Under the pieces are notes generated by a model. It was not told where the DNA came from, ran no database searches, and saw only the letters and a program-made list of their open reading frames with translations. Positions 1 through 18,456 of a DNA stretch of 18,456 nt are shown one piece after another (position 1 is the stretch's first letter; every line of letters starts with the position of its first letter). The position numbers and the translations under genes were made by a program. The stretch comes from a virus. Taxonomy: Duplodnaviria > Heunggongvirae > Uroviricota > Caudoviricetes. The stretch covers positions 1-18,456 of the IMG/VR virus record IMGVR_UViG_2713896795_000004; one strand, 5' to 3'.

Positions 1-147
1 TCAAACACTCGCAAGCTCGTATTTGATCTTAGAAATAGATAACAACCAAACTTTGCCGAATTCCTCGCTATCGCTACGGAATCCCGCAAGCGTTCTCCCT
101 TCGCTTTGCTCGATCCAGTAGGTGTAGTTCTCATTACTACTATTCAT
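1..147 (-). CDS. hypothetical small protein (48 aa), uncertain
   Basis: Manual reverse-strand translation: ATG (complement of 145..147) to TGA (complement of 1..3), MNSSNENYTYWIEQSEGRTLAGFRSDSEEFGKVWLLSISKIKYELASV. GAGG motif 7 nt upstream of the ATG. Lies in the GC-richer left flank and is below the ORF-track size cut-off. No recognisable family. Confidence 0.2.
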   Translation of the reverse strand: MNSSNENYTYWIEQSEGRTLAGFRSDSEEFGKVWLLSISKIKYELASV

Positions 148-240
148 AGTGATTCCTCAAATATTCTGGGAGTTGGACGCGGCGACGAAGTGGAACGGGG
201 CGGCGGTGTCAGTCAGTACCGAACAATAAGGAAAAAGAAA

Positions 241-582
241 ATGAAATACATACACTCAATAATAAAAGATTGGGGATACAGTCATAACTATCACGATGCC
301 GTACTAAATCACTTTCCTAATCAGGGAATGTACATCTTTGCAAGTGGTGAACTATCTTTCATGTATGACTACTTCCATCATAGGTGGACTGAAAGAACTC
401 ATACAGAAGAAATAACACGTAAACTACTTACAGAGTTCACGGAAGAAATGATCTTTCAGGAATGTACATTATATGATGCAGAATTAGTTCAGAAGGTGCA
501 AAGAGAAATACTCAAACACCACAAAGGCCAAATCACTTATATATGGATACCAAATGAGAAACCTAAAAATCACATACAATAA
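241..582 (+). CDS. hypothetical protein (113 aa)
   Basis: Track ORF 106..582 begins at a TTG in GC-richer flank. The first ATG (241) follows AAGGA with about 10-nt spacing and coincides with the switch to AT-rich composition, so the start is placed at 241. No recognisable motifs. Confidence 0.45.
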   Translation: MKYIHSIIKDWGYSHNYHDAVLNHFPNQGMYIFASGELSFMYDYFHHRWTERTHTEEITRKLLTEFTEEMIFQECTLYDAELVQKVQREILKHHKGQITYIWIPNEKPKNHIQ

Positions 583-973
583 CCCACGAGGCTTGATATT
601 CAATGACCGAGTATTAGCCAGGCGTTATGCAGTCAACCGTAAAGGCATATTACTAAATAATACTATCAAATACGATCATCCCCCTGATTACTATCTAGGA
701 CTGAATGAGGCGGAATACTTCCAATTGTCCGTAGTGATGGGTGATCTGGACGAAATAATATTCATGTCAGACTGTATAATCAATGGAGTAAAAATCATGC
801 AAATAGAAATACTAAACAATAACCCACTAAATTTTAGAGCACGTATCAATGGTGGACTAGACTTATATATTCACCATAAAGATGGAGTTGTCGCAAGTCA
901 GAGAATCCCCAATATAGAGGCTATAAAGAGCTACGTAGCTGGTGGAATCCATAAGGACGTACAACGAACATAG
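554..973 (+). CDS. hypothetical protein (139 aa)
   Basis: ATG-initiated ORF overlapping the previous gene by 29 nt, suggesting translational coupling in one operon. No recognisable family. Confidence 0.45.
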   Translation: MRNLKITYNNPRGLIFNDRVLARRYAVNRKGILLNNTIKYDHPPDYYLGLNEAEYFQLSVVMGDLDEIIFMSDCIINGVKIMQIEILNNNPLNFRARINGGLDLYIHHKDGVVASQRIPNIEAIKSYVAGGIHKDVQRT

Positions 974-1442
974 AAGAGATTAAACGCATTCTAAGGGGCG
1001 GGCAGGACGTTATAGAGGAACTATCAGAAGATGAGAAACTACAGAAGAGTATCAATAAACATACTGATTCAATCGCTAAAGCAGCGAAAGCAAAAAAAAC
1101 ACGCAAGCCAAAAGCATAAAACAAAGAAGCCTCTCTACTGGTGGTTGTCTCATGCTGTAAATCGCCTGACAAATATTCATAGCTATATTGAGCATAAGGC
1201 ACACGCACACATAAAAGCGTATCTAAGGTAATTGATCGTCCGAATAATTACGGTACTGAATTTGAGTTCTCGAAACCAACCAACTATATCGGGGGTAATT
1301 TATAGTTTCATAGTTGCAGTAGTAGTTGGTGTACTATATGATTCTTTAGACGTACAAATAAAAATCCATTGATGAAGTATTGCAGTTTCAAAAAGAGTCT
1401 CAACAACTAATTCCTCACGGTAAATAACAGGAATAAGCCACA

Positions 1443-1972
<530 letters not shown>

Positions 1973-2038
1973 TAATGGAACGGTATTAATATGTTATGTG
2001 AAAGTTTAATAGTGGATTATGACAGTACTAATTACTGA

Positions 2039-2215
<177 letters not shown>

Positions 2216-2504
2216 TAATATATGAGATACTTTGAAGACCAAAAATTCACAATGGCAGTTGCGGTAAATAAGATTATTAAGGGAGTTTATGAGATTAAGA
2301 TGTTGTCTTTATCGATATAGACTTAGCAGGTGAAGCAGGAGACAAGCTAGATATACCTCCAAAGGAGGCAGAAACTATTTAGCTACTAAATGATTTAGTA
2401 CAAATTATAAAATAATAAGAAGAGGCTAAATTTTACTATTAATATTAAAATTAACTTGTAATATTAATAGAGATTATTCATTTAAAATAGTGAGAAATAT
2501 TTAT

Positions 2505-2574
2505 TAATGAGTAATGAGTAATGAGTAATGAGTAATGAGTAATGAGTAATGAGTAATGAGTAATGAGTAATGAG
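2505..2574. repeat. perfect heptanucleotide tandem repeat (TAATGAG)x10
   Basis: Read directly: ten uninterrupted copies of TAATGAG, 70 bp, in the non-coding region about 130 bp downstream of the 3' end of the OLD-like gene. Confidence 0.95.
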
Positions 2575-2662
2575 TATATATAAATAATGGATGTAATAAA
2601 GTAGATGTCATAAATGAGTTTTCTCTATATAATGTATAATTATCAAATTATATTTATTGTAT

Positions 2663-2690
2663 TATATGCCAGTACTAGTACTGGCATATA
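2663..2690. repeat. perfect 28-bp palindrome; possible bidirectional terminator or protein-binding site
   Basis: tatatgccagtactagtactggcatata is its own reverse complement. It sits 13 bp beyond the stop codon of the minus-strand OLD-like gene, flanked by A/T-rich sequence. Confidence 0.5.
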
Positions 2691-2702
2691 TGAATTTAAT
2701 AA

Positions 2703-4549
<1,847 letters not shown>

Positions 4550-4974
4550 TTATTTAATACCATTACCAGAGAGAGAATAAAAATAATATCTTCAAAACTG
4601 TGACATATGTTGTTCTTTTATGTTGATTGTTACATGGTTGATGGTTTTGTGTGTTGACTAATAGTTTTTCAGTAATTTATTTGATTAATATGACATATGG
4701 AAAAGTCATTGCGTACTGGGGTAAATACATCTTATAGAGTATTAATATGGTTTATTACTGTGAATACTGTAATGGAGTAAATCATTTATTTTCATTAGTA
4801 ATAGGTACTCCCGAAAATCTGGGTGATCGTGGAGTTTTCGCCGCGAATTATAAAAAATATCTATGAGATTTTTTTATAAGAACACGCAATATCAATAGCT
4901 AAAAGTAATAAGCACCGAAACATATATAAAATACCAATCAATTGAAAATGAATAAAAAGTGAATAGGAAATCAC

Positions 4975-5544
4975 ATGGCAAAAAATAAAGACGATGGAAC
5001 CCGTTACACATATACGGAAATTGCCGAAAGATTTGGCGTAGAAATTAGTACCGCTTCGCGTATCTGGTCTGGAAAAGGACTGGATATTAACTGGCCTAAA
5101 AAATTAGTGGATCAGTGGTTACTAGCGAACGTAATCGAACCTATGCGTAATGGCGATGTAAAAGGAATGATTCATAAAGCTACACTACGCAAACTAGAAG
5201 CAGAAGCAGACCTGAAAGAATTAGAACTACGTCAACAATCGGGTGAACTAATTCCCGTTGCAGTAGTACAGCAAACATTATCACAATACTTCTATCAATT
5301 AAGACAAGTATTAAGAAGTATTCCCACATCAAGTTATGTTGAACTATTTGAATCACAGGACGCATTAGAATTAAAAATTAAATTACAGGATAAAATAGAC
5401 CGCCAGTTAGAAGAGATTGGCAGCTATGAATATGAGGGAACATATGAAGAACAACTATCAGAAGATGATGAAGGTACTAACGAGGGCGGCGAAATCAATC
5501 CTACCACCGAAGAAACAACTACCAGCGGAATGGGTAGAGAATAA
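4975..5544 (+). CDS. terminase small subunit (Nu1-like, N-terminal HTH), 189 aa
   Basis: N-terminal HTH-like segment YTYTEIAERFGVEISTASRIW, coiled-coil middle, acidic C-terminus. Sits immediately upstream of and overlapping the large terminase. AGGAAA before the ATG. Confidence 0.6.
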   Translation: MAKNKDDGTRYTYTEIAERFGVEISTASRIWSGKGLDINWPKKLVDQWLLANVIEPMRNGDVKGMIHKATLRKLEAEADLKELELRQQSGELIPVAVVQQTLSQYFYQLRQVLRSIPTSSYVELFESQDALELKIKLQDKIDRQLEEIGSYEYEGTYEEQLSEDDEGTNEGGEINPTTEETTTSGMGRE

Positions 5545-7345
5545 CCTAGTCTTCCCAGACGGCGAGCTACAGGGGCAAAGGGTCAAATTATTTGAGTTCC
5601 AAAAAAAGCCCTTGAATGACATAGTAAATCCCCGTATTCGTAAAGTGGTACTCATGAGTAGTGCTCAACTTCTCAAAACAACTGTACTTCAGAATAGTAT
5701 GTACTACTTCCTGGCAAATGATCCAAGTAACATGATCTTTGCGGGTGCAACTGGCGGTACTACAAGTAAGTTCCGTACTGGTAAATGGCAGGCAGTCATA
5801 GAGGCATGTTCGGTACTAAAGAATCTAGTAAGTAATAAGAATGATAAGAACTTTACTAATAACGATAAGACACAACAAAATTTAGATGGTACTTTTACTT
5901 ACTTTCTAACATTGGGTAGTAGTGCACAACTTCGCGGCCTGACAGCACCTCGCATATTTCTTGATGAAATATCCAACGTGGACGCGAGCGGGGATGAAGG
6001 CAACCCCCTGAAGCTAGCAGAACAGCGTACAAAGGCTTTTAGTAATCCCCTTATTATGTGTTGTTCTACTCCCCTTGATGAACATGACCTGATTACACAA
6101 CAGTACGAACAAAGTAATAAACAGAAGTTTTATGTACCGTGTCCACACTGTAACCACTCTCACGAATTAGTTTTTGAAAACGTTAAGTTTGACTGGAAGA
6201 TTATAGAAGGCGGTCGCCGCCGTATTCCTGATGCCGACACTGCAAGGCTAGAATGTCCAAAGTGTAGTAATGAAATCACAGAAGCCGAACGTGTACGAAT
6301 GATTCGTAAAGGAGAATGGATTGCAACAGCACCAGAGATTAAGGATATAGCTGGCTATCATGTCTCCCGCTTGTACTCTCCTATCAACTCTATCAAATCA
6401 ATTGTTGCCGACTTTGCCGAAGCACATTATACATTTGACCTGGCATCATTCTATAACAACGTATTAGGACTGCCATATATTGATAAAGAGAATAGCGAGC
6501 ATGACTTAGTATTATTAGAGAATCTAAGAGATAGTGAAATTGATATTGAAAATATACCAGATGATGTACTAGGGATCGTAATGGGCGTGGACCAGCAGCT
6601 TGATAGGTTGGAAATAAGCACACTAGGAGTAAGTGAAAAGAATCTATATGTACTTGATCACCGTAGTATCTACTCAATTGACTGTACTAAAATCGAAGCC
6701 CCAGCATGGAATAAGTTAACGGCCTTTGCAAATCATCCATTTAAAACACGTTCAGGTAAACCATTGAAGGTACTAGCCGGATTTGTCGATAGTTCAAACG
6801 GCAACGCAACCAGTACCGTGTACCGTTATTGCTCTAACTCTACTATCTTTAAACCTATCAAGGGTGGTACATCAAATACTAACCCACTATTCAAAGGTAG
6901 TACGGCTGGTGGTCACTCCCTGATTAACCTTAACCTTAACGTTAACTTAGGCAAGACTAACGTTAGACAGTTATTAAACCGTGCTGTATCAGATAATGAA
7001 AATAGTAAGGAAGTACAGATTCACTTTAGCCATTCAGTACCAGATGATTACTTTATTCAGGTTACATCAGAGAAGCGAGTAATAAAGGCTGGGGCGTGGG
7101 TATGGGTGAAGAAGATTAGTAGTGCACGTAATGAAACCTTAGACTGTTTAAACTATGCATTAATATGTTTCCAGTGGTATCTATCTAAGTTAGGTAGTCA
7201 ACCATACCGCCAGTTAAGGGAATATAACGCTAAACAAAAAGAGAAAGCAGGACTAAATAAAGAAGTAAATACAGAAGAAGCACCAACTAAGCCAACTCCT
7301 AAGCGAGTAATAAGGCCGCGTAAGGGTGGTGGTTTCTTTAAATAA
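5417..7345 (+). CDS. terminase large subunit, lambda GpA family
   Basis: Recalled similarity to lambda gpA: PAEWVENNLVFP...FEFQKKPLN versus lambda TAVEWADANYYLP...LPFQRAIMN; Cys/His cluster YVPCPHCNHSHEL...CPKC versus lambda HVACPHCGEE; GVDQQLDRLEI versus GIDSQLDRYEM. The track start at 5417 is TTG; in-frame ATGs at 5426, 5432, 5444 and 5465 are alternatives, so the start is uncertain and overlaps the terS 3' end. Confidence 0.85.
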   Translation: MAAMNMREHMKNNYQKMMKVLTRAAKSILPPKKQLPAEWVENNLVFPDGELQGQRVKLFEFQKKPLNDIVNPRIRKVVLMSSAQLLKTTVLQNSMYYFLANDPSNMIFAGATGGTTSKFRTGKWQAVIEACSVLKNLVSNKNDKNFTNNDKTQQNLDGTFTYFLTLGSSAQLRGLTAPRIFLDEISNVDASGDEGNPLKLAEQRTKAFSNPLIMCCSTPLDEHDLITQQYEQSNKQKFYVPCPHCNHSHELVFENVKFDWKIIEGGRRRIPDADTARLECPKCSNEITEAERVRMIRKGEWIATAPEIKDIAGYHVSRLYSPINSIKSIVADFAEAHYTFDLASFYNNVLGLPYIDKENSEHDLVLLENLRDSEIDIENIPDDVLGIVMGVDQQLDRLEISTLGVSEKNLYVLDHRSIYSIDCTKIEAPAWNKLTAFANHPFKTRSGKPLKVLAGFVDSSNGNATSTVYRYCSNSTIFKPIKGGTSNTNPLFKGSTAGGHSLINLNLNVNLGKTNVRQLLNRAVSDNENSKEVQIHFSHSVPDDYFIQVTSEKRVIKAGAWVWVKKISSARNETLDCLNYALICFQWYLSKLGSQPYRQLREYNAKQKEKAGLNKEVNTEEAPTKPTPKRVIRPRKGGGFFK

Positions 7346-7356
7346 GGAAAAATAAA

Positions 7357-7848
7357 ATGGCAATAGTTCGCAAAGTAACCCTAAGAGGCGATATCTTTAA
7401 AGGCGAGACTATTACATTCGACTACCCCGCAGGATCGGAAATTGATTTGATTGATCCTAACGGGGTAAAGACTTCATACACATACCCTTTCCCAGCTATT
7501 GATACTAGTAACTGGGATGCAGGTGTCTGGACTGCAATTATTAACAGTACCGTAGCGTATGGCGTACAACAATTCGAAGTAATAGATCCAACTTCAAAGG
7601 CGTCCGAATATAACGACCTGATGCAAATCATTAAAGATATTGATCAGATCATCATGGACAGAATTAAAGGCGGTGGTGTACTAAGTCAATCAATCCAAAA
7701 TAAATCATTAACATATGAAAGTAGTGAAATACTTATGAAGTTACGCCCTGTTTATGTCAGTCGTGCAAATGATTTACTTTCGGATATGAAAGGCTTTAAT
7801 ACTGGATGCCCTATTAAATCAATTACTACATTTAGGAGATCTCGTTAA
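7357..7848 (+). CDS. hypothetical protein between terminase and portal (163 aa); possible head-completion or accessory head protein
   Basis: AAGGA RBS and ATG start; its stop overlaps the portal start (TAATG). Function inferred from position only (lambda has gpW at the equivalent place). Confidence 0.45.
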   Translation: MAIVRKVTLRGDIFKGETITFDYPAGSEIDLIDPNGVKTSYTYPFPAIDTSNWDAGVWTAIINSTVAYGVQQFEVIDPTSKASEYNDLMQIIKDIDQIIMDRIKGGGVLSQSIQNKSLTYESSEILMKLRPVYVSRANDLLSDMKGFNTGCPIKSITTFRRSR

Positions 7849-9350
7849 TGTTCGGATGGAATAAAAAGAAAGTAGAAGAACCTAAACAAAAAGTTTTAGT
7901 ACAGAAGCCAGTGAAGCTAATGAAGAACAACCCTATGAAGCGTGCAATGTCTTCCCTGAATCTAGGATCTTCTAGTCCTGTTATCTCCTTTGGTTTCACG
8001 GGTGGTAATCAGGCAGGTAATATTAACGCCATCATTAACCGTACTCTACCTGTTATGGTTGCCGTGAGTCGTGAACTCTCGATTAAGAATGGTATTGTTA
8101 AGAAATATGTTTCTACTAACTCAGCAGGTGTAACAGGTGCGGATGGCCTATACATTCGTCCATGTACTCACTCTTCTGATAGTGAACAGGTTAACCAGTC
8201 AATCGATAAACAATTAGAAGATGCCTTCTATGCATGGGCGGAAGATCCTAAAGCCTTTTCACGTTGCGGTACTCTGGATATTAGTACCTTCCAACGTCTA
8301 GTAGAACGTACTCGTTCAGTAGATGGAGATTGTTTCATTCGTATTCACACTAAACCAGGTGAACTACCACAGGTTGAGATCATCGATTCAATGCGTATCT
8401 CTACCTATGAGAACCAGCTACTACCATCAGGTAACTATATTAGTAATGGTATCGAATTTGATATTAATACTAACCGTCCTGTAGCGTACTGGGTAACACG
8501 TTATAACCCTATCATGTATAACTATATGATTGGAGAACGTGAACGCGTACCAGCAGATGAAATTCTACACCTGTTTCAACAGGACTACCCAACGCAGCAA
8601 CGCGGGATACCTGATGTACATTCCGGTACTGAAAAGTTAAAAGAGCTAGAAGAGTTTATGTCAGCGGCAATTACTTCCCGTAAGGTTGCAGCGTCCGCAA
8701 TGGCATTTATCACTAATCCAGATAGTGACGATGTTCAGCTACTGACTGATGACAGTGTTTCGTACTATGATCAAGACTATCTAAATCCGGCTGCAATCGT
8801 AGAACTACAAGCAGGACAAGATATTAAAACAGTAAACCCAACTCAAACCACAGATGGAATTGATGAGTTTATTAATAACCAATTAATGATGATTGCAATG
8901 GGCTTGGATATTACAAAACAATCACTAACATCAGATACTAGTAATGCTTCATTCAGTGCAGCAAAACTGACTGATAAATTACAACAATCAACATTTAAAA
9001 GCCGCACTAATGCTTTAATTGTTTCGGTACTAAAACCTCTTTATATTGCATGGCTAAAATCTGCAATGCTAAATAGTAGTACGTTAAGCAATTTAAATTT
9101 TAGTGATTTTAATAAATTAACCCATGCACAATATGTACAGACTCGTCAAATCTCCCTTGATCCATTAAAAGACCTTCAAACCGAAGTATTAGCAATTGAT
9201 AACGGTTTAAAGAGTAAGGCAATGGTAATTTCAGAGATGGGATACGATCCTGTTATCGTCATGGAAGAGATAAAAAAGGAAAACAAGGAAAATGGAATTG
9301 AACCTGAACAAGAACCAGATGAGGGCGATCAATCTAACGCAGATCAATAA
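7848..9350 (+). CDS. portal protein (lambda gpB-like), 500 aa
   Basis: Canonical position after the large terminase, appropriate size, AGGAGA RBS. Weak recalled similarity to the lambda gpB region around ...NPAAIVELQAGQDIKTV...MIAMGLDITKQSL. Acidic C-terminal tail. Confidence 0.7.
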   Translation: MFGWNKKKVEEPKQKVLVQKPVKLMKNNPMKRAMSSLNLGSSSPVISFGFTGGNQAGNINAIINRTLPVMVAVSRELSIKNGIVKKYVSTNSAGVTGADGLYIRPCTHSSDSEQVNQSIDKQLEDAFYAWAEDPKAFSRCGTLDISTFQRLVERTRSVDGDCFIRIHTKPGELPQVEIIDSMRISTYENQLLPSGNYISNGIEFDINTNRPVAYWVTRYNPIMYNYMIGERERVPADEILHLFQQDYPTQQRGIPDVHSGTEKLKELEEFMSAAITSRKVAASAMAFITNPDSDDVQLLTDDSVSYYDQDYLNPAAIVELQAGQDIKTVNPTQTTDGIDEFINNQLMMIAMGLDITKQSLTSDTSNASFSAAKLTDKLQQSTFKSRTNALIVSVLKPLYIAWLKSAMLNSSTLSNLNFSDFNKLTHAQYVQTRQISLDPLKDLQTEVLAIDNGLKSKAMVISEMGYDPVIVMEEIKKENKENGIEPEQEPDEGDQSNADQ

Positions 9351-11154
9351 TGCAATTGATGAAGCTGATAGAACTGTAGAACTCTCCTTTGCCTCAGAAA
9401 TTCCAGTAGTACGCGACATTAAAGGGACTCTCTATAATGAGATCCTTTTATGCAGTCCTGAAAACGTAGACTTAAGCCGTCTTAATGACGGTGCACCTGT
9501 ACTAGTAGAACATGATGCAATGCGTCAAGTTGGTATAGTTGAGAATGCTCGCGTAGATATGGATAAAGTTTGCCGTGCTACTGTACGTTTTAGTGCACTT
9601 GGAACAGCAAATACTATCTTCGGTATGATCTTAGAAGGTATTCGCCCTAAAGTGTCCGTAGGTTATAACATCTTAGATTATCGTATTGATGGTAATAACC
9701 TAATTGTTTCAAAATGGGAACCCTATGAAATATCCAGTGTTTCGCAGCCAGCGGACAACTCAGTTGGGGTGGGAAGATCACTAAATAGTAATGAAGAAAT
9801 CACACTAGAGGATCTACCCAAAATGGAGCAAGAACAAAAAGAAGAACTAGTACAGGAAGTTGAAGTTATTAAGGAAGTACAGGAAGAAGAAGTACAAGCC
9901 GAAGTAATCGAAGAAGAAGTAGTAGTTCAGGAAGAATCAGTAGAAGTAGTAGAAGAACCGGAAGTAATTGAGGAAGTACAGGAAGTACAACCTGAATTAG
10001 TAGAAGAACGTTCTATTGCAATTACTGATATTCAAGAAAGCATAAATAAAGAAGTAGAAGCAAATCGTATTCGCGAACTTCAATCTATTTCTTTGGTACT
10101 AGGTGTTAGTACAGAAGAAGCAATTAACAACGGTGTAAGCGTAGAAGACTTTAAACGCTCACTAAATAAAGATAATAAATCAATTGATAAGGATATCAAA
10201 AAAATGGAAAAGAAATCTCTAATTAACGAAGGTCTACGTAGTCTAAAAGGTGAAACTCATGATCTAGAAACCTTCGAAAAAGGTGCACGCGGTTATAATG
10301 CAGACCTAAACGCTATGGTACGTTCTACCGCTGATACTACTTCTACTGTAACCGCAGCAGGTCTAGTAAAAGAAGAACTAGCAGACGCGTATATTCGTCA
10401 ACTACTCGCAGCTACTGTACTGGGCCAACTAGATGTAACTGTTTTTGGTGGCCTAGCGGGACGCGGCAATTTCTCTATCCCACGTGCTAAAGGTATGAAC
10501 CCAGCAGCTAAGTTTTACAATGAAGATGAAGCAGTATCCGACGGCTTCGAAACCTTCGATAAGATCACTCTAAAGCCTCGCATGTTCGCAGCAGGTATCA
10601 AGATCACTAAAGCAATGCTACTAAGCAACGCAGCTACCGAACGTTATGTTACCGACGAGCTATTACGCCAATGTTCTAACGGTCTAGAGTCCGCAGTATT
10701 TGCACAAATCGCTACTACTGTACCAGTACAGCAAACCGCTGTATCCGGTCAAGTATCCGAAGCAGACGTACAGAAAGCTATCGAAGCTATCTCCGCGAAA
10801 AACGTTGATATCAATCGTTGTGTTGCTATCGTGCATCCTTCTATGCTCGCTAAACTACGTCAAACCGCGGTATTGAATAACACCGCAGCAGTTGCAATGG
10901 TAGCTGGTCATCGTTATGACATGTGGCTAAACGACGAAGTACGCGTAATTGAATCTACTTTCGTAGCAGCAGATACTATTCTAATTGGTGACTTCTCTGA
11001 ACTAATTTTCGCTAACTGGAACGAAGGTCAAGAACTAGATTTTGATGATACTACTTACCGTGCAGCACAAACTATCGCTATCAGAAGTTTTCAGTACCTC
11101 GACGTAGCTATTGCACACGAAGAAGGATTTGTACTACTACAACTAAAACCATAA
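9292..11154 (+). CDS. fused prohead protease / acidic scaffold-like linker / HK97-fold major capsid protein (620 aa)
   Basis: N-terminal domain with candidate catalytic His in LVEHD (His74, nt 9511..9513) and Ser-containing segments. Acidic E/V/Q-rich repeat linker (aa 178-240). C-terminal domain with HK97-type MCP pattern: VAIVHPSMLAKL...MWLNDEVRVIESTFVAADTILIGDFSE compared with recalled HK97 gp5 IVLNPRDWHNI...MWGLPVVPT...FTVGGFD. Start may instead be the ATG at 9319. Confidence 0.7.
   Translation: MELNLNKNQMRAINLTQINNAIDEADRTVELSFASEIPVVRDIKGTLYNEILLCSPENVDLSRLNDGAPVLVEHDAMRQVGIVENARVDMDKVCRATVRFSALGTANTIFGMILEGIRPKVSVGYNILDYRIDGNNLIVSKWEPYEISSVSQPADNSVGVGRSLNSNEEITLEDLPKMEQEQKEELVQEVEVIKEVQEEEVQAEVIEEEVVVQEESVEVVEEPEVIEEVQEVQPELVEERSIAITDIQESINKEVEANRIRELQSISLVLGVSTEEAINNGVSVEDFKRSLNKDNKSIDKDIKKMEKKSLINEGLRSLKGETHDLETFEKGARGYNADLNAMVRSTADTTSTVTAAGLVKEELADAYIRQLLAATVLGQLDVTVFGGLAGRGNFSIPRAKGMNPAAKFYNEDEAVSDGFETFDKITLKPRMFAAGIKITKAMLLSNAATERYVTDELLRQCSNGLESAVFAQIATTVPVQQTAVSGQVSEADVQKAIEAISAKNVDINRCVAIVHPSMLAKLRQTAVLNNTAAVAMVAGHRYDMWLNDEVRVIESTFVAADTILIGDFSELIFANWNEGQELDFDDTTYRAAQTIAIRSFQYLDVAIAHEEGFVLLQLKP
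9823..10011. repeat. low-complexity acidic coding repeat (GAAGAA/GTAGAA-rich) inside the capsid ORF
   Basis: Translates to MEQEQKEELVQEVEVIKEVQEEEVQAEVIEEEVVVQEESVEVVEEPEVIEEVQEVQPELVEE; the DNA is built from imperfect gaagta/gaagaa units. Confidence 0.7.
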
Positions 11155-11166
11155 GGTACTTTCACT

Positions 11167-11487
11167 ATGAGGCATTTTACTAGCAATCAAATTGATTCTA
11201 CTTTTCTAAATGCCTTTGGTGAACCTATCACAATTAACGGGGCGACGTTCAAAGCTATTTTGGACAATCGCCCCGTAGTCATAGATAGCGGTACTGAAGG
11301 ACTAGTAGAAAGTACAGAAACATTTCTATCAGTGAAGACTGACGATCTAACTACTTTCAGTATCGCAATTGATTCCGAAGTAGTAGTACAGGGTACAAAT
11401 TACACTGTATACAATATCTATAATGATTTGAGCGGTATTTGTGAAGTTTACATAAGACCATCAACAATTAATAATTACGGGTGGTAA
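11167..11487 (+). CDS. hypothetical protein (106 aa); head-tail connector/adaptor candidate by position
   Basis: ATG ORF directly after the capsid gene, in the size range of HK97-like head-tail connector proteins. No motif evidence. Confidence 0.4.
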   Translation: MRHFTSNQIDSTFLNAFGEPITINGATFKAILDNRPVVIDSGTEGLVESTETFLSVKTDDLTTFSIAIDSEVVVQGTNYTVYNIYNDLSGICEVYIRPSTINNYGW

Positions 11488-11488
11488 T

Positions 11489-11884
11489 ATGGGACTATTA
11501 AGCGACGTACAAAAGACAATTAGAACCAGTCTGAATAATATCATGCCAATTCGAAAGGCAATGAATATCCAGGCAGGTAAAGATCTATTCATCTTAGTAT
11601 CAGTAAATCAGACATATTCACCAACCAACTTTGGCACACAACGCCAGACAGGAACATTCGATTTCCAATTTCTCCTAGTACCGGAACCATCAGTACAACT
11701 TCCCGCCGATTCCTACGGTACTATATTCGAATACTTCCGTACTAATACTATTAAAGAGTTTAAAGATAATAACGTCACTCTACTTTCTTATGAGTTTCAA
11801 GATAGCGAACAGGTAACAGATCCAACTACTGGCTATCAATCGTTATCGTTTGCAATAAATATTGTAGCAACTCAAAAACCATAA
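11489..11884 (+). CDS. hypothetical protein (131 aa); head-tail joining candidate by position
   Basis: ATG 1 nt after the previous stop (tightly coupled). Position-based call only. Confidence 0.4.
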   Translation: MGLLSDVQKTIRTSLNNIMPIRKAMNIQAGKDLFILVSVNQTYSPTNFGTQRQTGTFDFQFLLVPEPSVQLPADSYGTIFEYFRTNTIKEFKDNNVTLLSYEFQDSEQVTDPTTGYQSLSFAINIVATQKP

Positions 11885-11896
11885 GGAATATAGATA

Positions 11897-11924
11897 ATGA
11901 GTGATAATATTTTTACTGGTAGTG
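11897..11924 (+). pseudogene. 5' stub of a gene cut by IS2 (9 codons, MSDNIFTGS)
   Basis: AAGGAA RBS at 11883..11888, ATG at 11897, reading frame runs straight into the IS2 terminal inverted repeat at 11925. Confidence 0.35.
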
Positions 11925-11935
11925 TGGATTTGCCC

Positions 11936-12841
11936 CTATATTTCCAGACACCTGTTATCACTTAACCCATTACTGGCCCGCTGCCGTAGATATTCCCGTG
12001 GCGAGCGATAACCCAGTGCACTATGCGGATGCCATTCGTTATAATGCTCGAACGCCTCTGCAAGGTTCTTTGCTGCCGTTAACCCGTCTGGTTTGGGCAT
12101 GATACTGATGTAATCACGCTTTATCGTTTTCACGAAGCTCTCTGCTATGCCGTTACTCTCCGGACTCCGCACCGCCGTGTTCTTCGGTTCAAGTCCCAAC
12201 ATCCGGGCGAACTGGCGTGTTTCATTAGCCCGGTAGCATGAACCATTATCCGTCAGCCACTCCACTGGAGATGTCGGAAGCTCGCTGCCGAAGCGGCGTT
12301 CCACCGCTCCCAGCATGACGTCCTGTACTGTTTCACTGTCGAAGCCGCCCGTAGTGACCGCCCAGTGCAGTGCCTCACGGTCACAGCAGTCCAGCGCGAA
12401 CGTGACTCGCAGTTTTTCTCCGTTATCACAGCGGAACTCGAACCCGTCAGAGCACCATCGTTGATTGCTTTCTTTCACGGCCACTTTGCCAGTATGTGCC
12501 CGTTTCGATGGCGGTACAGCGGTTTTTCGCTCAAGCAACAGCGCATTCTGGCGCATGATCCGGTAAACACGTTTGGCATTGATAGCAGGCATACCATCAA
12601 GTTCGGCCTGTCTGCGAAGCAGCGCCCATACCCGACGATAACCATACGTGGGCAGCTCTCCGATAACATGGTGTATACGGAGAAGCACATCCGTATCATC
12701 TGAGTGACGGCTGCAGCGACCATCTTTCCAGTCATCGGTTCGTCTGAGAATGACGTGCAACTGCGCACGCGACACCCGGAGACAACGGCTGACTAAGCTT
12801 ACTCCCCATCCCCGGGCAATAAGGGCGCGTGCGCTATCCAC
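11936..12841 (-). CDS. insD: IS2 transposase OrfB (InsD), DDE integrase-like catalytic domain, 301 aa
   Basis: Matches recalled InsD sequence. Overlaps insC in the -1 frame at the AAAAAAG slippery site, so the InsCD fusion would arise by programmed frameshift. GTG start. Confidence 0.9.
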
Positions 12842-13164
12842 TTTTTTGCACGCCCATATTCAACGGCTTCTTTAAGGAGTTCATTTTCCATCGTTTTTTT
12901 GCCGAGCAGGCGCTGAAGTTCTTTAATCTGCTTCATGGCAGCAGCAAGTTCAGAGGCAGGAACGACCTGTTCTCCTGCGGCCACAGCAGTAAGACTTCCC
13001 TCCTGGTATTGCTTGCGCCATAGAAATAACTGGCTGGCTGCCACACCGTGTTGCCGGGCAACAAGGGAGACCGTCATTCCCGGTTCAAAGCTCTGCTGAA
13101 CAATAGCGATCTTTTCCTGTGTAGTACGCCGTCTGCGTTTCTCCGGTCCTAAGACATCAATCAT
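12799..13164 (-). CDS. insC: IS2 transposase OrfA (InsC), HTH DNA-binding protein, 121 aa
   Basis: Translation from the ATG at 13164 matches recalled InsC ([56 protein letters not shown]...). The track ORF extends further 5' to an upstream alternative start. Confidence 0.9.
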
Positions 13165-13256
13165 CTGTTCTCCAATGACTAGTCTAAAAACTAGTATTAA
13201 GACTATCACTTATTTAAGTGATATTGGTTGTCTGGAGATTCAGGGGGCCAGTCTAG

Positions 13257-13784
13257 AAAGGTAAATGCATCCCACGAGATTTAAAGGTTAACGAAACAAA
13301 CGCTGACTATCTTTTCCGTAAGTTCGGTGAACTTGAATCAAAACTCAACGAGCAGCGTGAGTATTACGAGGGCGTTATCTCGGATGGGAGTAAGCGTATT
13401 GCTGAACTGGAGAAAAGCGAAGAGCAACTCATCAACGAGCGTGACCATGCTGAGTCTGCTTTAGCTGATATGTACTTTGCAGCAACCGGTAACAGGCCGG
13501 AGTGGAGCAACTGGTTCGGCTTTTCAGATGCTGTCGATGCCGTGGTTGACAGAATAGCTGATTTAGAAGCTAAACAGCCATCGCCGGTAGTGCCGGATAA
13601 TGCATCAGGGTCGCTTGCTTATGCTTACAAAGAGCTTACGCCTGAGATTATGCGCGGTCATATCGCTGTATTCGAGCGATATGGAATAGCCCCAAACGAT
13701 AGCATTACCACAATTCAGGCACTGCGAATCGCGCTGGATGGTATAGAGCGGAGCAACGCCATGCTTCAGGGGAAAGGAGAGTGA
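13257..13784 (+). pseudogene. N-terminally truncated coiled-coil protein of the lambdoid early-accessory region (possibly Ea22-like), cut by IS2
   Basis: Reading frame is open from the first base after IS2 (stop TAG lies inside the IS2 end at 13254..13256) through 13784, with no start codon near the IS boundary. Coiled-coil-like LESKLNEQREYYEGVISDGSKRIAELEKSEEQLINE. The Ea22 assignment is from memory and weak. Confidence 0.45.
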
Positions 13785-13785
13785 T

Positions 13786-14301
13786 ATGGCGTTAACACAC
13801 AGCGAACTCTGTCAGATTGCGTACAAGTTCCTTAAGCGCAACGGGTTCAAGGTTTGTTTTCATGACCGCTTTATAGCTGTAACCAGTACCGGAGAACAGC
13901 CAGATGCTATGGGATTCAGAAATTCAGCATCATGCCTGATAGAGGCGAAGTGTTCTCGTGCTGACTTGTTGGCAGATAGAAAAAAGCGTTTTCGTAAAAA
14001 TCCGTCTCTTGGAATGGGCGACTGGCGATTCTTTATTAGTGAGCCGGGGATTATTTCAATTGAGGATTTACCACCTGGCTGGGGATTACTTCACGTTGTT
14101 AACGGAAGAGTACGGAAAGTACATGGGTGGCCAAAGGGCAATTGCTGTTGGGGTAATCCTGACGATAAGCCATTTACTGGAAATAAGCAGGTTGAATGCG
14201 ATTACATGTTATCTGCATTAAGGCGCATGGAGTTGAGAGGGCACCTTAATGAAATATATGACGGTGTAATTGTTAATAAGAAAGAAGGAAACGCGGCATG
14301 A
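13786..14301 (+). CDS. hypothetical protein with PD-(D/E)xK-like nuclease motif (171 aa)
   Basis: AAAGGAGAG RBS, ATG 1 nt after the previous stop. Motif ...EQPDAMGF...(12 aa)...LIEAKCSRADL resembles the PD...(D/E)xK core of restriction-endonuclease-fold proteins. Family not assigned. Confidence 0.5.
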   Translation: MALTHSELCQIAYKFLKRNGFKVCFHDRFIAVTSTGEQPDAMGFRNSASCLIEAKCSRADLLADRKKRFRKNPSLGMGDWRFFISEPGIISIEDLPPGWGLLHVVNGRVRKVHGWPKGNCCWGNPDDKPFTGNKQVECDYMLSALRRMELRGHLNEIYDGVIVNKKEGNAA

Positions 14302-15137
14302 CCACTATTACCAAAGAGCGACTGCTGACAATCAAGCAGTGGCGCGAAACATACGGACCTGGTAGCAACGTTGTACTGCCAGCAGAAGAAGCGGAAGAAC
14401 TGGCACGAATTGCTCTGGCATCGCTGGAAGCAAAACCAATAGGTGCTTTCCACATTGCAGAACAGCAGGTCGATGGCACAAGTGACTACATCAAGGATGG
14501 GGAGTGGCCTATTGATAACGGGATAATTGAAGTATACGCCGCTCCGCCAGTGCCGGTAGTACCTGGGGAAATTGCTGATGATTTAATGGAGAAATTACCG
14601 AAAAGTGATGCATGGGCTAATGGGTTTCGTGGTGGCTGGAACGCCTGCCGCGCAGTCATGCTTCAGTCCGGAAACTTTCGGAAAATCCCGGAAGCGTCAA
14701 CCAGCTCTCCGGTAACTCCGCCTCTTTTGCCTGGTGGTTTCACCATTGAGGATGCGAAGGAGTTACATGAAGACCTGGTTCGCAGCCACATAAGCCAGGC
14801 TTTAAGTGGCGAAAAGATGAAAAAGAAAGATCGCGAGGCTGATTTGCGCTGGATTCATGGCGTAATAGTTCAGGCTGCGTGGTTTGTAAAGGCATCACTG
14901 GAGCAGAATGCACTATCGGGCAACTCTCCGGTAACTCCGGATAGTTGGATAAGCTGTAGTGAGCGAATGCCGGAAGAAACGGGTGACATTATTGTTGTTT
15001 CGGATGGCATTGTAATGTCAGGGATTTCTTATTCTCGTCGTGACGGGTTCTATATGGCCGCATTGGAGTACGACGACGACGAACCAATTGACGGTGTAAC
15101 CCACTGGATGCCGCTGCCAGAACCGCCGCAGGGGTGA
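14298..15137 (+). CDS. phage protein with C-terminal DUF551-like domain (279 aa)
   Basis: ATGA start/stop overlap with the previous gene. C-terminal SERMPEE...VTHWMPLPEPP matches the recalled DUF551 signature (ER[ML]PE ... W-x-PLP-x-PP) common in lambdoid early-region accessory genes. Confidence 0.55.
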   Translation: MTTITKERLLTIKQWRETYGPGSNVVLPAEEAEELARIALASLEAKPIGAFHIAEQQVDGTSDYIKDGEWPIDNGIIEVYAAPPVPVVPGEIADDLMEKLPKSDAWANGFRGGWNACRAVMLQSGNFRKIPEASTSSPVTPPLLPGGFTIEDAKELHEDLVRSHISQALSGEKMKKKDREADLRWIHGVIVQAAWFVKASLEQNALSGNSPVTPDSWISCSERMPEETGDIIVVSDGIVMSGISYSRRDGFYMAALEYDDDEPIDGVTHWMPLPEPPQG

Positions 15138-15203
15138 AATGATGCTTGGCCTGAAGTATTTTATGTAATTGGTATTGCTATATTTTTATCTGGGGATAAA
15201 CGA

Positions 15204-15446
15204 ATGTTCTCTCTGATTCAACGTGGTCAGATATACACCGATAGCGCTGGCTATCCAGTAAAAATCATTCGTAGTACTGATCACTCAGTATTCTTCAAGA
15301 GGATGGATGGCTATCCTGGAAGAGTGTGCATCAGAAAATTCAATAATTTATTCGAACACATTGATCACAGAGAATATCACCAGATCCTGGCTGAAACAGA
15401 GCAGGAGAACCATCTGAAAAAATTACGTGCCATGCAAAGGAGATAA
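15204..15446 (+). CDS. hypothetical lambdoid early-region protein (80 aa)
   Basis: ATG ORF in the position occupied by ea-type genes in lambda; no motif evidence. Confidence 0.45.
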   Translation: MFSLIQRGQIYTDSAGYPVKIIRSTDHSVFFKRMDGYPGRVCIRKFNNLFEHIDHREYHQILAETEQENHLKKLRAMQRR

Positions 15447-15526
15447 ACCGGTAAAGGTGTTCGCGATAAAGGTGAATATCGGCAATGAATAACAATCCTC
15501 GAACTCGCGGGGATTTCTTTTATCTG

Positions 15527-15553
15527 AACTCGCTACGGCGAGTTTTGTTTTAT
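15527..15553 (+). terminator. putative intrinsic terminator
   Basis: 7-bp stem AACTCGC / GCGAGTT with 4-nt loop TACG, followed by TTGTTTTAT. Confidence 0.35.
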
Positions 15554-15564
15554 GGAGATGATAA

Positions 15565-15732
15565 ATGCACTTCCGAGTCACAGGTGAATGGAATGGAGAG
15601 CCATTCAACAGAGTTATCGAGGCAGAGAACATCAACGACTGCTATGACCACTGGATGCTGTGGGCGCAGATAGCACATGCAGACGTAACCAATATTCGAA
15701 TTGAAGAACTGAAAGAACACCAATCCGCCTGA
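15565..15732 (+). CDS. small hypothetical protein (55 aa), same size and spacing as the small ORF just upstream of xis in phage lambda
   Basis: Manual translation MHFRVTGEWNGEPFNRVIEAENINDCYDHWMLWAQIAHADVTNIRIEELKEHQSA. GGAGA RBS 7 nt before the ATG; ends 39 nt before xis. Below the ORF-track size cut-off. Confidence 0.45.
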   Translation: MHFRVTGEWNGEPFNRVIEAENINDCYDHWMLWAQIAHADVTNIRIEELKEHQSA

Positions 15733-15747
15733 TGGCGGCTTTTTCTT
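15725..15747 (+). terminator. putative intrinsic terminator overlapping the stop of the 55-aa ORF
   Basis: CCGCC-TGAT-GGCGG hairpin followed by CTTTTTCTT. Confidence 0.35.
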
Positions 15748-15771
15748 GCGTGTAATTGCGGAGACTTTGCG

Positions 15772-15990
15772 ATGTACTTGACACTTCAGGAGTGGAACGC
15801 ACGCCAGCGACGCCCAAGAAGCCTTGAAACAGTTCGTCGATGGGTGCGCGAATGCAGGATATTCCCTCCTCCGGTTAAGGATGGAAGAGAGTATCTGTTC
15901 CACGAATCAGCGGTAAAGGTTGACTTAAATCGACCAGTAACAGGTAGCCTTTTGAAGAGGATCAGAAATGGGAAGAAGGCGAAGTCATGA
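15772..15990 (+). CDS. xis: excisionase Xis (lambda type), 72 aa
   Basis: MYLTLQEWNARQRRPRSLETVRRWVRECRIFPPPVKDGREYLFHESAVKVDLNRPVTGSLLKRIRNGKKAKS matches recalled lambda Xis. Overlaps the int start as in lambda. Confidence 0.95.
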   Translation: MYLTLQEWNARQRRPRSLETVRRWVRECRIFPPPVKDGREYLFHESAVKVDLNRPVTGSLLKRIRNGKKAKS

Positions 15991-17038
15991 GCGCCGGGAT
16001 TTACCCCCTAACCTTTATATAAGAAACAATGGATATTACTGCTACAGGGACCCAAGGACGGGTAAAGAGTTTGGATTAGGCCGAGACAGGAGGATAGCAA
16101 TCACTGAAGCTATACAGGCCAACATTGAGTTATTTTCAGGACACAAACACAAGCCTCTGACAGCGAGAATCAACAGTGATAATTCTGTTACGTTACATTC
16201 ATGGCTTGATCGCTACGAAAAAATCCTCGCCAGCAGAGGAATCAAGCAGAAGACACTCATAAATTACATGAGCAAAATTAAAGCAATAAGGAGGGGTCTG
16301 CCTGATGTTTCACTTGAAGACATCACCACAAAAGAAATTGCGGCAATGCTCAATGGATACATAGACGAGGGCAAGGCGGCGTCAGCCAAGTTAATCAGAT
16401 CAACACTGAGCGATGCATTCCGAGAGGCAATAGCTGAAGGCCATATAACAACAAACCCGGTCGCTGCCACTCGCGCAGCAAAATCAGAGGTAAGGAGATC
16501 AAGACTTACGGCTGACGAATACCTGAAAATTTATCAAGCAGCAGAATCATCACCATGTTGGCTCAGACTTGCAATGGAACTGGCTGTTGTTACCGGGCAG
16601 CGAGTTGGTGATTTATGCGAAATGAAGTGGTCTGATATCGTAGATGGATATCTTTATGTCGAGCAAAGCAAAACAGGCGTAAAAATTGCCATCCCTACAA
16701 CATTGCATGTTGATGCTCTCGGGATATCAATGAAGGAAACACTTGGTAAATGCAAAGAGATTCTTGGCGGAGAAACCATAATTGCATCTACTCGTCGTGA
16801 ACCGCTTTCATCCGGCACAGTATCAAGGTATTTTATGCGCGCACGAAAAGCATCAGGTCTTTCCTTCGAAGGGGATCCGCCAACCTTTCACGAGTTGCGC
16901 AGTTTGTCTGCAAGACTCTATGAGAAGCAGATAAGCGATAAGTTTGCTCAACATCTTCTCGGGCATAAGTCGGACACCATGGCATCACAGTATCGTGATG
17001 ACAGAGGCAGGGAGTGGGACAAAATTGAAATCAAATAA
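15968..17038 (+). CDS. int: tyrosine integrase Int (lambda type), 356 aa
   Basis: Near-identical to recalled lambda Int over its whole length (MGRRRSHERRDLPPNLYIRNNGYYCYRDPRTGKEFGLGRDRR ... HELRSLSARLYEKQISDKFAQHLLGHKSDTMASQYRDDRGREWDKIEIK). Catalytic R...H-x-x-R...Y context present. Confidence 0.97.
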   Translation: MGRRRSHERRDLPPNLYIRNNGYYCYRDPRTGKEFGLGRDRRIAITEAIQANIELFSGHKHKPLTARINSDNSVTLHSWLDRYEKILASRGIKQKTLINYMSKIKAIRRGLPDVSLEDITTKEIAAMLNGYIDEGKAASAKLIRSTLSDAFREAIAEGHITTNPVAATRAAKSEVRRSRLTADEYLKIYQAAESSPCWLRLAMELAVVTGQRVGDLCEMKWSDIVDGYLYVEQSKTGVKIAIPTTLHVDALGISMKETLGKCKEILGGETIIASTRREPLSSGTVSRYFMRARKASGLSFEGDPPTFHELRSLSARLYEKQISDKFAQHLLGHKSDTMASQYRDDRGREWDKIEIK

Positions 17039-17133
17039 TGATTTTATTTTGACTGATAGTGACCTGTTCGTTGCAACAAATTGATAAGCAATGCTTTTTT
17101 ATAATGCCAACTTAGTATAAAAAAGCAGGCTTC
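17039..17133. other. attL: lambda P' arm plus 15-bp core (reverse complement of GCTTTTTTATACTAA at 17112..17126) joined to the bacterial B arm
   Basis: Sequence TTTTATTTTGACTGATAGTGACCTGTTCGTTGCAACAAATTGATAAGCAATGCTTTTTTATAATGCCAACTTAGTATAAAAAAGCAGGCTTCA matches the recalled lambda attL/P' arm, with the core directly followed by host sequence leading into ybhC. Confidence 0.9.
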
Positions 17134-17172
17134 AACGGATTCATTTTTCTATTTCATAGCCCGGAGCAACCT

Positions 17173-18456
17173 GTGAACACATTTTCAGTTTCCCGTCTGG
17201 CGCTGGCATTGGCTTTTGGCGTGACGCTGACCGCCTGTAGCTCAACACCGCCCGATCAACGTCCTTCTGATCAAACCGCGCCTGGTACCTCTTCTCGCCC
17301 GATTCTGTCGGCAAAAGAAGCGCAGAATTTCGATGCTCAACACTATTTTGCATCCCTGACACCAGGTGCGGCAGCGTGGAATCCTTCCCCGATTACCCTG
17401 CCTGCGCAACCTGACTTTGTTGTCGGCCCGGCGGGTACTCAAGGTGTAACGCATACCACGATTCAGGCGGCGGTAGATGCGGCAATTATCAAGCGTACCA
17501 ACAAGCGCCAGTATATTGCCGTGATGCCTGGTGAGTATCAGGGAACGGTGTATGTCCCTGCCGCTCCGGGTGGAATTACTCTATACGGTACAGGTGAAAA
17601 ACCGATTGATGTGAAGATTGGGCTTTCCCTTGATGGTGGCATGAGCCCTGCCGACTGGCGTCACGACGTCAACCCGCGCGGCAAATATATGCCAAGTAAA
17701 CCGGCGTGGTATATGTACGATAGCTGCCAGAGTAAACGCAGCGACAGTATCGGTGTTCTCTGCTCTGCGGTCTTCTGGTCACAAAACAATGGCCTGCAAC
17801 TGCAAAACCTGACCATCGAAAACACGCTGGGCGATAGCGTAGATGCGGGTAACCATCCGGCGGTGGCACTGCGTACTGATGGCGACAAAGTGCAGATCAA
17901 TAACGTCAACATTCTCGGTCGTCAGAACACCTTCTTTGTCACCAACAGCGGTGTGCAGAACCGTCTGGAAACGAATCGCCAGCCGCGTACGCTGGTGACC
18001 AACAGCTATATTGAAGGGGATGTGGATATCGTTTCTGGTCGCGGCGCAGTGGTGTTCGATAACACCGAATTCCGCGTGGTGAACTCCCGTACCCAGCAAG
18101 AAGCGTATGTGTTTGCACCGGCTACGCTGTCCAACATTTACTACGGTTTCCTCGCCGTAAACAGCCGTTTCAATGCTTCCGGTGATGGCGTGGCGCAACT
18201 GGGCCGCTCGCTGGATGTTGATGCCAATACCAACGGTCAGGTAGTGATCCGTGATAGCGCCATCAACGAAGGTTTTAACACGGCGAAACCGTGGGCCGAT
18301 GCGGTGATTTCCAATCGTCCATTCGCGGGTAACACCGGCAGCGTTGATGATAACGACGAAGTACAGCGTAATCTGAATGACACTAACTACAACCGCATGT
18401 GGGAATACAATAACCGCGGCGTGGGTAGCAAAGTGGTTGCAGAGGCGAAGAAGTAG
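17173..18456 (+). CDS. ybhC: YbhC, pectinesterase-fold outer-membrane lipoprotein (putative acyl-CoA thioesterase), 427 aa, complete
   Basis: GTG start; lipobox LTAC in MNTFSVSRLALALAFGVTLTACSS; sequence matches recalled E. coli YbhC. Known chromosomal neighbour of attB-lambda. Composition is host-like. Confidence 0.9.
   Translation: MNTFSVSRLALALAFGVTLTACSSTPPDQRPSDQTAPGTSSRPILSAKEAQNFDAQHYFASLTPGAAAWNPSPITLPAQPDFVVGPAGTQGVTHTTIQAAVDAAIIKRTNKRQYIAVMPGEYQGTVYVPAAPGGITLYGTGEKPIDVKIGLSLDGGMSPADWRHDVNPRGKYMPSKPAWYMYDSCQSKRSDSIGVLCSAVFWSQNNGLQLQNLTIENTLGDSVDAGNHPAVALRTDGDKVQINNVNILGRQNTFFVTNSGVQNRLETNRQPRTLVTNSYIEGDVDIVSGRGAVVFDNTEFRVVNSRTQQEAYVFAPATLSNIYYGFLAVNSRFNASGDGVAQLGRSLDVDANTNGQVVIRDSAINEGFNTAKPWADAVISNRPFAGNTGSVDDNDEVQRNLNDTNYNRMWEYNNRGVGSKVVAEAKK

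Follow-up and report, generated by a model that had tools for sequence, protein, structure and literature searches.

The window analysed here, a stretch of 18,456 nucleotides (nt) covering positions 1 to 18,456 of IMG/VR record IMGVR_UViG_2713896795_000004, contains part of an AT-rich Escherichia coli prophage, and the present study concerns the candidate packaging (cos) site located in front of its terminase genes. This site lies in a 451-nt intergenic region between two divergent genes, an OLD-family nuclease gene on the minus strand (2703-4523) and the small terminase gene terS on the plus strand. BLASTP comparisons with phage lambda revealed 24% identity between the small terminase subunit (TerS) and Nu1 (E 5e-4), in an alignment that is colinear and includes the helix-turn-helix, and 23% identity between the large subunit (TerL) and gpA over the full length (2e-24). 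The terL gene is called from position 5444 by gene callers, giving a product of 633 amino acids (aa). Judging from these alignments and from the GpA_ATPase and GpA_nuclease domains of TerL, the terminase is a remote GpA/Nu1 homologue, as the original prediction for this region had assumed. Other genes of the AT-rich part encode a head-tail joining protein, a lambda-family portal, a protease-capsid fusion and a head-closure protein, together with one more small open reading frame (ORF).

The original prediction had singled out a short GC-richer segment of this divergent intergenic region, upstream of terS, as a packaging site placed as in lambda-type phages with GpA/Nu1 terminases, and had proposed a small dyad within it as the symmetric nicking site. 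Direct reading of the sequence located the two arms of this dyad exactly where they had been placed, within cccGAAAATCtgggtgatcgtgGAGTTTTCgccgcg: CGAAAA at 4812-4817 and TTTTCG at 4835-4840, separated by a 17-nt spacer, the right arm ending 135 nt before the terS ATG. The local rise in GC content is also real, since positions 4810-4846 reach 57% GC, the regional maximum, as compared to 28% across the intergenic region. Comparative evidence, namely the terminase type, a conserved element in related genomes and a geometry shared with lambda, supports the assignment as a packaging site. It indicates that window positions ~4800-4975 are very probably the cosQ-cosN-cosB region, in a lambda-type layout, of an uncultured AT-rich E. 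coli prophage.

TerL-based scans retrieved 12 relatives from genomes and IMG/VR, and 42 further ones from metagenomes. An element of ~90 bp (window ~4800-4890) occurs as a single copy per genome, in the orientation of terL and upstream of terS, in 45 distinct relatives with TerL identities down to ~43%. Two blocks survive in the otherwise diverged DNA before terS, AGGTWCTC (4802-4809) and CGAGTTTYCGCCGCGAAT (4830-4848), and both are kept among the 12 relatives, whose TerS are 33-97% identical, even at 33%. The heptamer block at 4802-4809 is the most conserved part of the 45-sequence alignment, with 1.47 bits per column, and nine positions are invariant in the 12 close relatives (G4832, T4836, T4837, G4840, C4841, G4843, C4844, G4845 and A4846). 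A profile built from 22 sites and run with nhmmer against 1.26 Mb found exactly one match in each family locus having enough upstream sequence, always on the strand of terL and 558-672 nt before it. The profile also matched a clade outside the training set (L110, L111, L119, L126, L128, L129, L131, L135-137 and L143; E 1e-8 to 7e-4), in which the element lies ~1150-1210 nt before terL and, in L110, is separated from terS by minus-strand ORFs. Only one non-family match, a marginal one, was found in the 1.26 Mb. The intergenic DNA of the window was without match both in a blastn search of 50,697 phage records and in a megablast search of 5,426 complete E. coli genomes. In several relatives (the terL region of L040, L046 and L080, and L017 1458-3341), the TerL match is split across reading frames, suggestive of frameshifts or pseudogenes; they nevertheless retain an intact cos core. 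In a metagenomic relative, L124, four copies of the short tandem repeat CTCTGTACCG lie ~600-700 nt before terL, just ahead of the cos-like element.

The internal organization of the element became apparent when all 45 family sites were aligned from the first base of the heptamer together with the sites of lambda and of two Jilinvirus members, Escherichia phage HeidiAbel_Bas97 (hereafter Bas97) and Enterobacter phage Arya. In this frame, (C/G)G occupies offsets 28-29 in most sequences, and the next six bases, [ATG][AG]GTTT, form a conserved hexamer ahead of a variable one. The dinucleotide CG is found at offset 28 in 20/45 sequences and at offset 42 in 12/45, the others being shifted by 1. The resulting family pattern can be written AGGTWCT-N22-24-(C/G)G/[ATG][AG]GTTT + 6 variable/CG, where slashes mark the predicted nicks. 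These would fall between 4832 and 4833 on the top strand and between 4843 and 4844, or 4844 and 4845, on the bottom strand, leaving an 11-12-nt 5' end, AGTTTTCGCCG(C). Across the family, bp 1-6 of this predicted end are conserved and bp 7-12 are variable. The distance from the heptamer start to the predicted nick is 30 +/- 1 nt in most of the 45 sequences, and is the same in lambda and Bas97. The GGGTCCT version of the heptamer was found in L103 and Arya. It is identical to the lambda heptamer at positions 48473-48479 of the lambda sequence, where its presence was confirmed and which we take to be cosQ. The predicted parts of the site are listed in Table 1.

Table 1. Predicted parts of the cos region and the terminase genes that follow it (window coordinates).
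Feature	Position	Strand	Remarks
cosQ-like heptamer AGGTACT	4803..4809	+	family consensus AGGTWCT; some members GGGTCCT, identical to the lambda heptamer
Variable spacer	4810..4830	+	holds the left dyad arm CGAAAA; 0.31-0.41 bits per column
Predicted cosN: GG, AGTTTTCGCCG(C), (C)G	4831..4845	+	predicted; contains the right dyad arm TTTTCG (4835-4840); in the alignment frame GG 4831-4832, AGTTTT and CGCCGC 4833-4844, CG 4844-4845
I2-like interval	4846..4879	+	A/T-rich inverted repeat TTATAAAAAA (4848-4857) and TTTTTTATAA (4870-4879); conserved TGAG (4864-4867); T run
R3-like candidate TerS-binding site GAACACGCAAT	4880..4890	+	bp 48-58 from the predicted left end
Rest of the cosB-like region and terS leader	4891..4974	+	conserved ATCAATTGAAAATGAAT (4935-4951); ribosome-binding site; putative function
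terS, Nu1-like small terminase	4975..5544	+	N-terminal helix-turn-helix EIAERFGVEISTASRIW; PHROG 57 1.6e-18
terL, GpA-type large terminase	5417..7345	+	Pfam GpA_ATPase 5.9e-50, GpA_nuclease 5.2e-42

Set against this alignment, the dyad did not hold as a symmetric nicking site. The intergenic region contains 11 perfect 6-bp inverted repeats with 3-25-nt spacers, as compared to 6.4 +/- 3.5 in shuffled sequences, and at least one such repeat with at least 2 G/C per arm was seen in 60% of the shuffles. Among the 45 distinct homologous sites, the left arm shows background conservation (0.31 bits per column), and the right arm reaches 1.28 bits per column because it sits inside the conserved core. 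With this shuffle frequency and an unconserved left arm, the dyad was rejected as a functional symmetry element, and the small inverted repeat that drew attention to the region is a coincidence: its left arm belongs to the variable spacer that separates the cosQ-like part from the cosN-like part, and its right arm would correspond to the left (conserved) half of the predicted cohesive end. The cos assignment accounts for the GC island, and the small dyad should not be over-read.

Further evidence comes from the cosB-like part of the region, which changes together with TerS. Each clade has a distinctive block at a constant position, bp ~46-60 counted from the predicted first base of the end, and this block changes with the helix-turn-helix of TerS as the cosQ-like and cosN-like parts stay constant. 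The helix-turn-helix EIADRFGVEHSTVSRIW is thus found with the block AAAACAAACAA, QYGYDESTVRxW with CCCGCACCGCA, QYG(F/Y)NESTVREW with GAGGCGAAACG, RRYGYDVSVISR with TACACAAAACA, and RRYGVNESTVRGW with either CGCGTACCGCA or CGCGTGCCGAA. The most telling case is provided by two members of a close clade. P0001/L268 combines the window's TerS variant, EIAERFGVEISTASRIW (EISTAS), with the window's block, ACACGCAA (4880-4890); in P0002/L003, the C-terminal region of TerS is nearly identical, but EHSTVS is associated with ACAAACAA. The window site and its own TerS are a matched pair. The position of the block agrees with that of R3 in lambda (bp 50-65) and N15 (bp 48-60) and with the 47 +/- 2 bp rule (PMC9026076), and a changing R-type block next to a constant cosQ and cosN is the pattern described for lambda, 21 and N15 (PMC4669245). 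Short direct, inverted and direct repeats occur in other clades, as in L008, where two copies of CAAAACGAAAG are found with GAAAGGT/ACCTTTC. The only string resembling an integration host factor (IHF) site in the window is TATCAATAGCTAA (4891-4903), which has one mismatch to WATCAANNNNTTR and is not kept in L002 or L003.

The layout of the region can be compared with that of lambda, whose junction reads ...ACGGGTCCTTTCCGGTGATCCGACAGGTTACG/GGGCGGCGACCT/CGCGGGTTTTCGC..., that is, GGGTCCT-N23-/GGGCGGCGACCT/CG. In both cases the site lies upstream of terS in the packaging direction, the heptamer (AGGTACT here, GGGTCCT in lambda) is 30 nt from the predicted nick, (C/G)G stands beside predicted nicks ~11-12 bp apart, the end begins with six conserved bases, followed by six that vary freely, and a TerS-specific block is found ~47 bp from the predicted nick; the terminase proteins are remote homologues. 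The cosN pattern of the family agrees with the rules published for lambda-like phages, in which cosQ is a highly conserved 7-bp sequence and conservation extends to the nick-flanking CG and to bp 1-6 of the end, bp 7-12 being variable (PMC4669245). In contrast to lambda, the predicted end, AGTTTTCGCCG(C), is unrelated to GGGCGGCGACCT and shows hardly any twofold symmetry or none, the region is shorter, with terS beginning at bp 143 (bp 191 in lambda), and the window's own clade has neither a convincing IHF site nor a clear R3/R2/R1 triplet. TerL is also just 23% identical to gpA, and the ends described here are predicted from sequence. The family falls outside the lambda-like phages in the strict sense of Feiss et al. 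(PMC4669245), as the predicted end AGTTTTCGCCGC has no meaningful identity to GGGCGGCGACCT in the same orientation. The compact cos of N15, which lacks an IHF site and has a single critical TerS site at bp ~48-60 (PMC9026076), resembles what is found here, namely one clear clade-specific block at bp 46-60. Unlike the window family, N15 keeps the cosQ of lambda, and its cohesive end differs from that of lambda at 2/12 positions.

In Jilinvirus, Bas97 has AGGTACT-N23-/GGGCATTGGTCC/CG upstream of terS, and with this lambda-like 12-mer it is a clear intermediate. Jilinvirus and the window family share the heptamer (AGGTACT or GGGTCCT) upstream of terS, the 30-nt distance to a G/G step, a 12-mer with CG after it, further right ...TTCGCG and GTGCGTGGAT, both similar to the right-hand blocks of the family, and a GpA-type TerL (27-29% identical). 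They differ in that the Jilinvirus 12-mer, GGGCATTGGTCC, is lambda-like and that of the family is not, and in that Jilinvirus members are GC-rich myoviruses. A local alignment of the profile to Bas97 and Arya recovered the heptamer block alone. The linear Arya record (KX231828.1; L151/L152) opens inside the predicted cos, 5 nt before the nick predicted by the lambda geometry; this record start was not usable as a terminus, as the genome announcement describes permutation (PMC5754474).

Several points weigh against the proposed cosQ-cosN-cosB assignment. In the predicted cosN frame, at most 1/11 symmetric pairs match (inspection of 4828-4849), as compared to 10 of 16 bp in lambda; another palindrome, TTCGC-C-GCGAA (4837-4847), is present and clade-specific. 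The left flank in the window is GG, not CG, and in the window's clade the right CG follows the predicted nick by 11 nt, not 12. Among ~70 related contigs from IMG/VR, metagenomes and Logan, reached through two IMG/VR pattern scans and a TerL scan, metagenomes, and Logan assemblies retrieved via TerS homologues, none started or ended at the predicted nick. Two contigs starting 87 nt before the core (L040 and L046) were rejected as termini, these starts being prophage-caller boundaries at a gene edge beyond which the sequence continues in L080, and L199 and L201 were dismissed as chance matches. The co-variation between TerS and the site is partly confounded by the shared ancestry of the clades. 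The best nhmmer match of the family profile in lambda falls at cos, but with E = 1.6, so that the lambda similarity is weak when taken alone, and the lambda motif matches had been seen before being tested. Searching phages with TerL (tblastn) yielded no cultured phage above 39% identity. The best phage match for TerL was an odd record, DCP80, the start of which shows no related motif. DCP80 (L101, PQ671644.1, an Escherichia phage) is a 141-kb sequence labelled Tevenvirinae/Gaprivervirus, with a TerL 35-39% identical to that of the window; its positions 1-14000 contain a GpA-type terminase, a lambda-type portal and a protease-capsid fusion after 1.3 kb of repeat-rich non-coding DNA, and its taxonomy label or its assembly looks doubtful.

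A second alignment with lambda is also possible, pairing the family sequence GAGTTTTCG with lambda bp 17-25 (GGGTTTTCG), and it leads to a different placement of the nicks within a cos site. Under this alternative, the nicks would flank the variable spacer, AGGTWCTC and CGAGTTTYCG would be the outer cosN flanks, matching lambda AGGTTACG and CGCGGGTTTTCGC, and the end would be a lineage-specific sequence of ~15-19 nt at ~4811-4828. The pattern AGGT-N14-30-G[AG]GTTT[TC]CG matches lambda once in 97 kb, exactly across cosN (0.13 expected), nhmmer places the best lambda match of the family profile, correctly oriented, at bp 9-40, and in Bas97 the sequence CGCGTAATTCGCG, immediately to the right of the lambda-like 12-mer, resembles CGCGTAGTTTCGCC of the family. 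Yet the spacing is 5-7 nt off that of lambda, and the N range had been widened after lambda was seen. A fully variable overhang would contradict the conservation rule for bp 1-6 (PMC4669245), no cosQ equivalent would be left, and the TerS-linked block would shift from ~bp 47 to ~bp 65-75. Because of the spacing, the missing cosQ equivalent and the broken bp 1-6 rule, this placement was ranked lower and is considered unlikely; the placement of the nicks to the right of the spacer fits three independent lambda distances together (30, 12 and ~47).

The position of the element at an operon boundary would also suit a signal acting on transcription of the late operon (packaging and head genes), either a site for an activator or antiterminator, or an intrinsic terminator or attenuator of low strength. 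A hairpin and T run are indeed found just after the core in several relatives (z = -3.6 in L001, z = -2.9 in L107, and an 8-10-bp stem with UUUUUU in L011). However, L017, L109 and L110 have no hairpin or an unremarkable one, although the primary sequence of both blocks is kept, and antisense ORFs occur between the element and terS in the L110 clade. The element is present in one copy per genome, and the downstream block varies with the DNA-binding helix of a packaging protein, TerS. A role in transcription appears very unlikely. A scan of the region called no plus-strand sigma-70-like promoter or terminator, and Rfam searches assigned no family, with two chance-level matches (E 0.66 and 0.88).

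Headful packaging from a pac site, in which terminase would recognize the element and produce permuted, terminally redundant DNA, is the least credible of these explanations and is regarded as highly improbable. GpA-type large terminases associated with a Nu1-like TerS belong to the lambda 5'-cos type, which counts against it, and the cosQ-like and CG-N12-CG features would have no role in such packaging. Terminal redundancy and circular permutation were reported in the announcement of Arya, a Jilinvirus member with a homologous element (PMC5754474), but this statement was based on assembly and restriction data only. An attP site was excluded, the element being internal to the integrated prophage and ~10 kb from the integrase.

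With the cosQ-cosN-cosB assignment, packaging could proceed as follows. The N-terminal helix-turn-helix of TerS would bind the R3-like block at 4880-4890, and possibly further short repeats downstream, and bound TerS would position the GpA-type TerL ~47 bp away on cosN. TerL would then nick both strands 11-12 bp apart, each nick lying beside (C/G)G, to expose the 5' cohesive end, and packaging would run rightwards through terS. The heptamer AGGTACT, 30 nt upstream of the nick, would act as a cosQ-like signal ending packaging when the motor meets the next cos.

The prophage carrying this site belongs to a family of small, temperate, siphophage-like prophages that are AT-rich, uncultured and found in Enterobacteriaceae; they carry a serine integrase and lie on contigs of ~22-36 kb. 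Hosts of the family include E. coli, Citrobacter, Salmonella, Klebsiella, Pseudocitrobacter and Pluralibacter; locus L001, for example, is an intact relative in Pseudocitrobacter faecalis DSM 27453 (NZ_QNRL01000002.1, around 196.8-210.7 kb). The genome containing the window prophage is that of E. coli GCA_001077955.1, in which ybhC is 99.6% identical to that of E. coli. An IS3 element (11936-13209) follows the last head ORF (end 11884), at the place where relatives carry tail genes: a 924-1020-aa fusion of major tail and fibre proteins, a tail tube and a chaperone in intact relatives. In three relatives (L100 8451-11225, L264 17069-20131 and L266 16558-19527), the long tail protein matches major tail families at its N-terminus, and tail-fibre families together with an S74 chaperone domain at its C-terminus. 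Beyond IS3 lie the int end of a lambdoid prophage and then ybhC (L147, L148), the lambda attB region. The other end of the prophage abuts msyB/mdoGH, a chromosomal locus that is distant in E. coli K-12, which suggests that an IS3-mediated inversion or deletion joined two prophages. Beside msyB, ~2.3-4.2 kb upstream of window position 1, a gene for a 620-aa large serine recombinase (Resolvase/Recombinase/Zn_ribbon_recom) was found at L148 5269-7131, and L264 and L266 begin with a gene of the same kind. The window copy thus has a cos that is intact in sequence, in a prophage cut by IS3 after the head and connector genes, and it cannot produce complete virions on its own.

Such a head-only module superficially resembles the gene content of phage-inducible chromosomal islands of the capsid-forming kind (cf-PICIs). 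These carry a head module without tail genes (10.1101/2022.09.08.507074). Like cf-PICIs such as EcCIEDL933, the window has terS, terL, portal, protease-capsid and connector genes with their own packaging site and without tail genes. In contrast, intact relatives of the window have tail genes directly after the connectors, the window copy being merely cut by IS3. Described proteobacterial cf-PICIs are of the HK97 type, with hnh-terS-terL at the operon end, whereas here the GpA/Nu1 pair comes first, and PICI-type int/alpA/rep genes contrast with the large serine recombinase found here. With relatives having tail genes, a serine recombinase and a GpA/Nu1 terminase, a cf-PICI was rejected as the explanation for the head-only module.

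Genes located upstream of cos vary among relatives. The single-gene OLD-family nuclease directly upstream of cos in the window (Pfam AAA_15 and an OLD-like TOPRIM; PADLOC 'Old' 1.5e-74) also stands beside cos in L269 (787-2607) and L270 (786-2606), where TerS is 81-82% identical. Other relatives have unrelated small ORFs in its place, such as a PLDc_2 protein in L264, so that the stretch before cos has the appearance of a defence-gene hotspot. Some relatives have a gene for a 241-aa HNH endonuclease ~2-2.5 kb upstream of terS (L264 7350-8075; L266 7106-7831), and no HNH domain was found by Pfam in the three scanned window ORFs upstream of the OLD gene. In HK97-type phages, an HNH protein takes part in cos cleavage. 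Upstream of cos in L007, a homologue of phage T4 Gp30.7 (1111-1491; Pfam PF06919, 1.5e-33) is found amid many small ORFs of no assigned function.

Overall, the site would be a lambda-type cos of an ordinary kind, distinguished by its cohesive end and belonging to a new phage family, and it leaves the current understanding of cos packaging unchallenged. It provides a testable cos assignment, with nick positions, overhang, termination signal and TerS site, for a family without a cultured member. That the lambda cos geometry can be recognized at a very low terminase identity (~23%) may also help in orienting and delimiting the genomes of uncultured phages and in predicting their packaging specificity. 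We further propose, tentatively and with slightly less than even confidence, that a lambda cos 'grammar' has been kept far beyond the lambdoids, in GpA phages whose TerL are ~23-29% identical to gpA (the window family and Jilinvirus): a heptamer of cosQ type that precedes the nick by 30 nt, nicks spaced 11-12 bp and flanked by (C/G)G, an end that is conserved on its left and free on its right, and a TerS site at ~47 bp, with the sequence of the cohesive end itself fully replaced. If this is true, the family would provide natural swaps between TerS helices and R sites for recognition studies (EISTAS with ACACGCAA vs EHSTVS with ACAAACAA), and the cohesive ends and packaging specificity of uncultured GpA-type phages would become readable from sequence alone.

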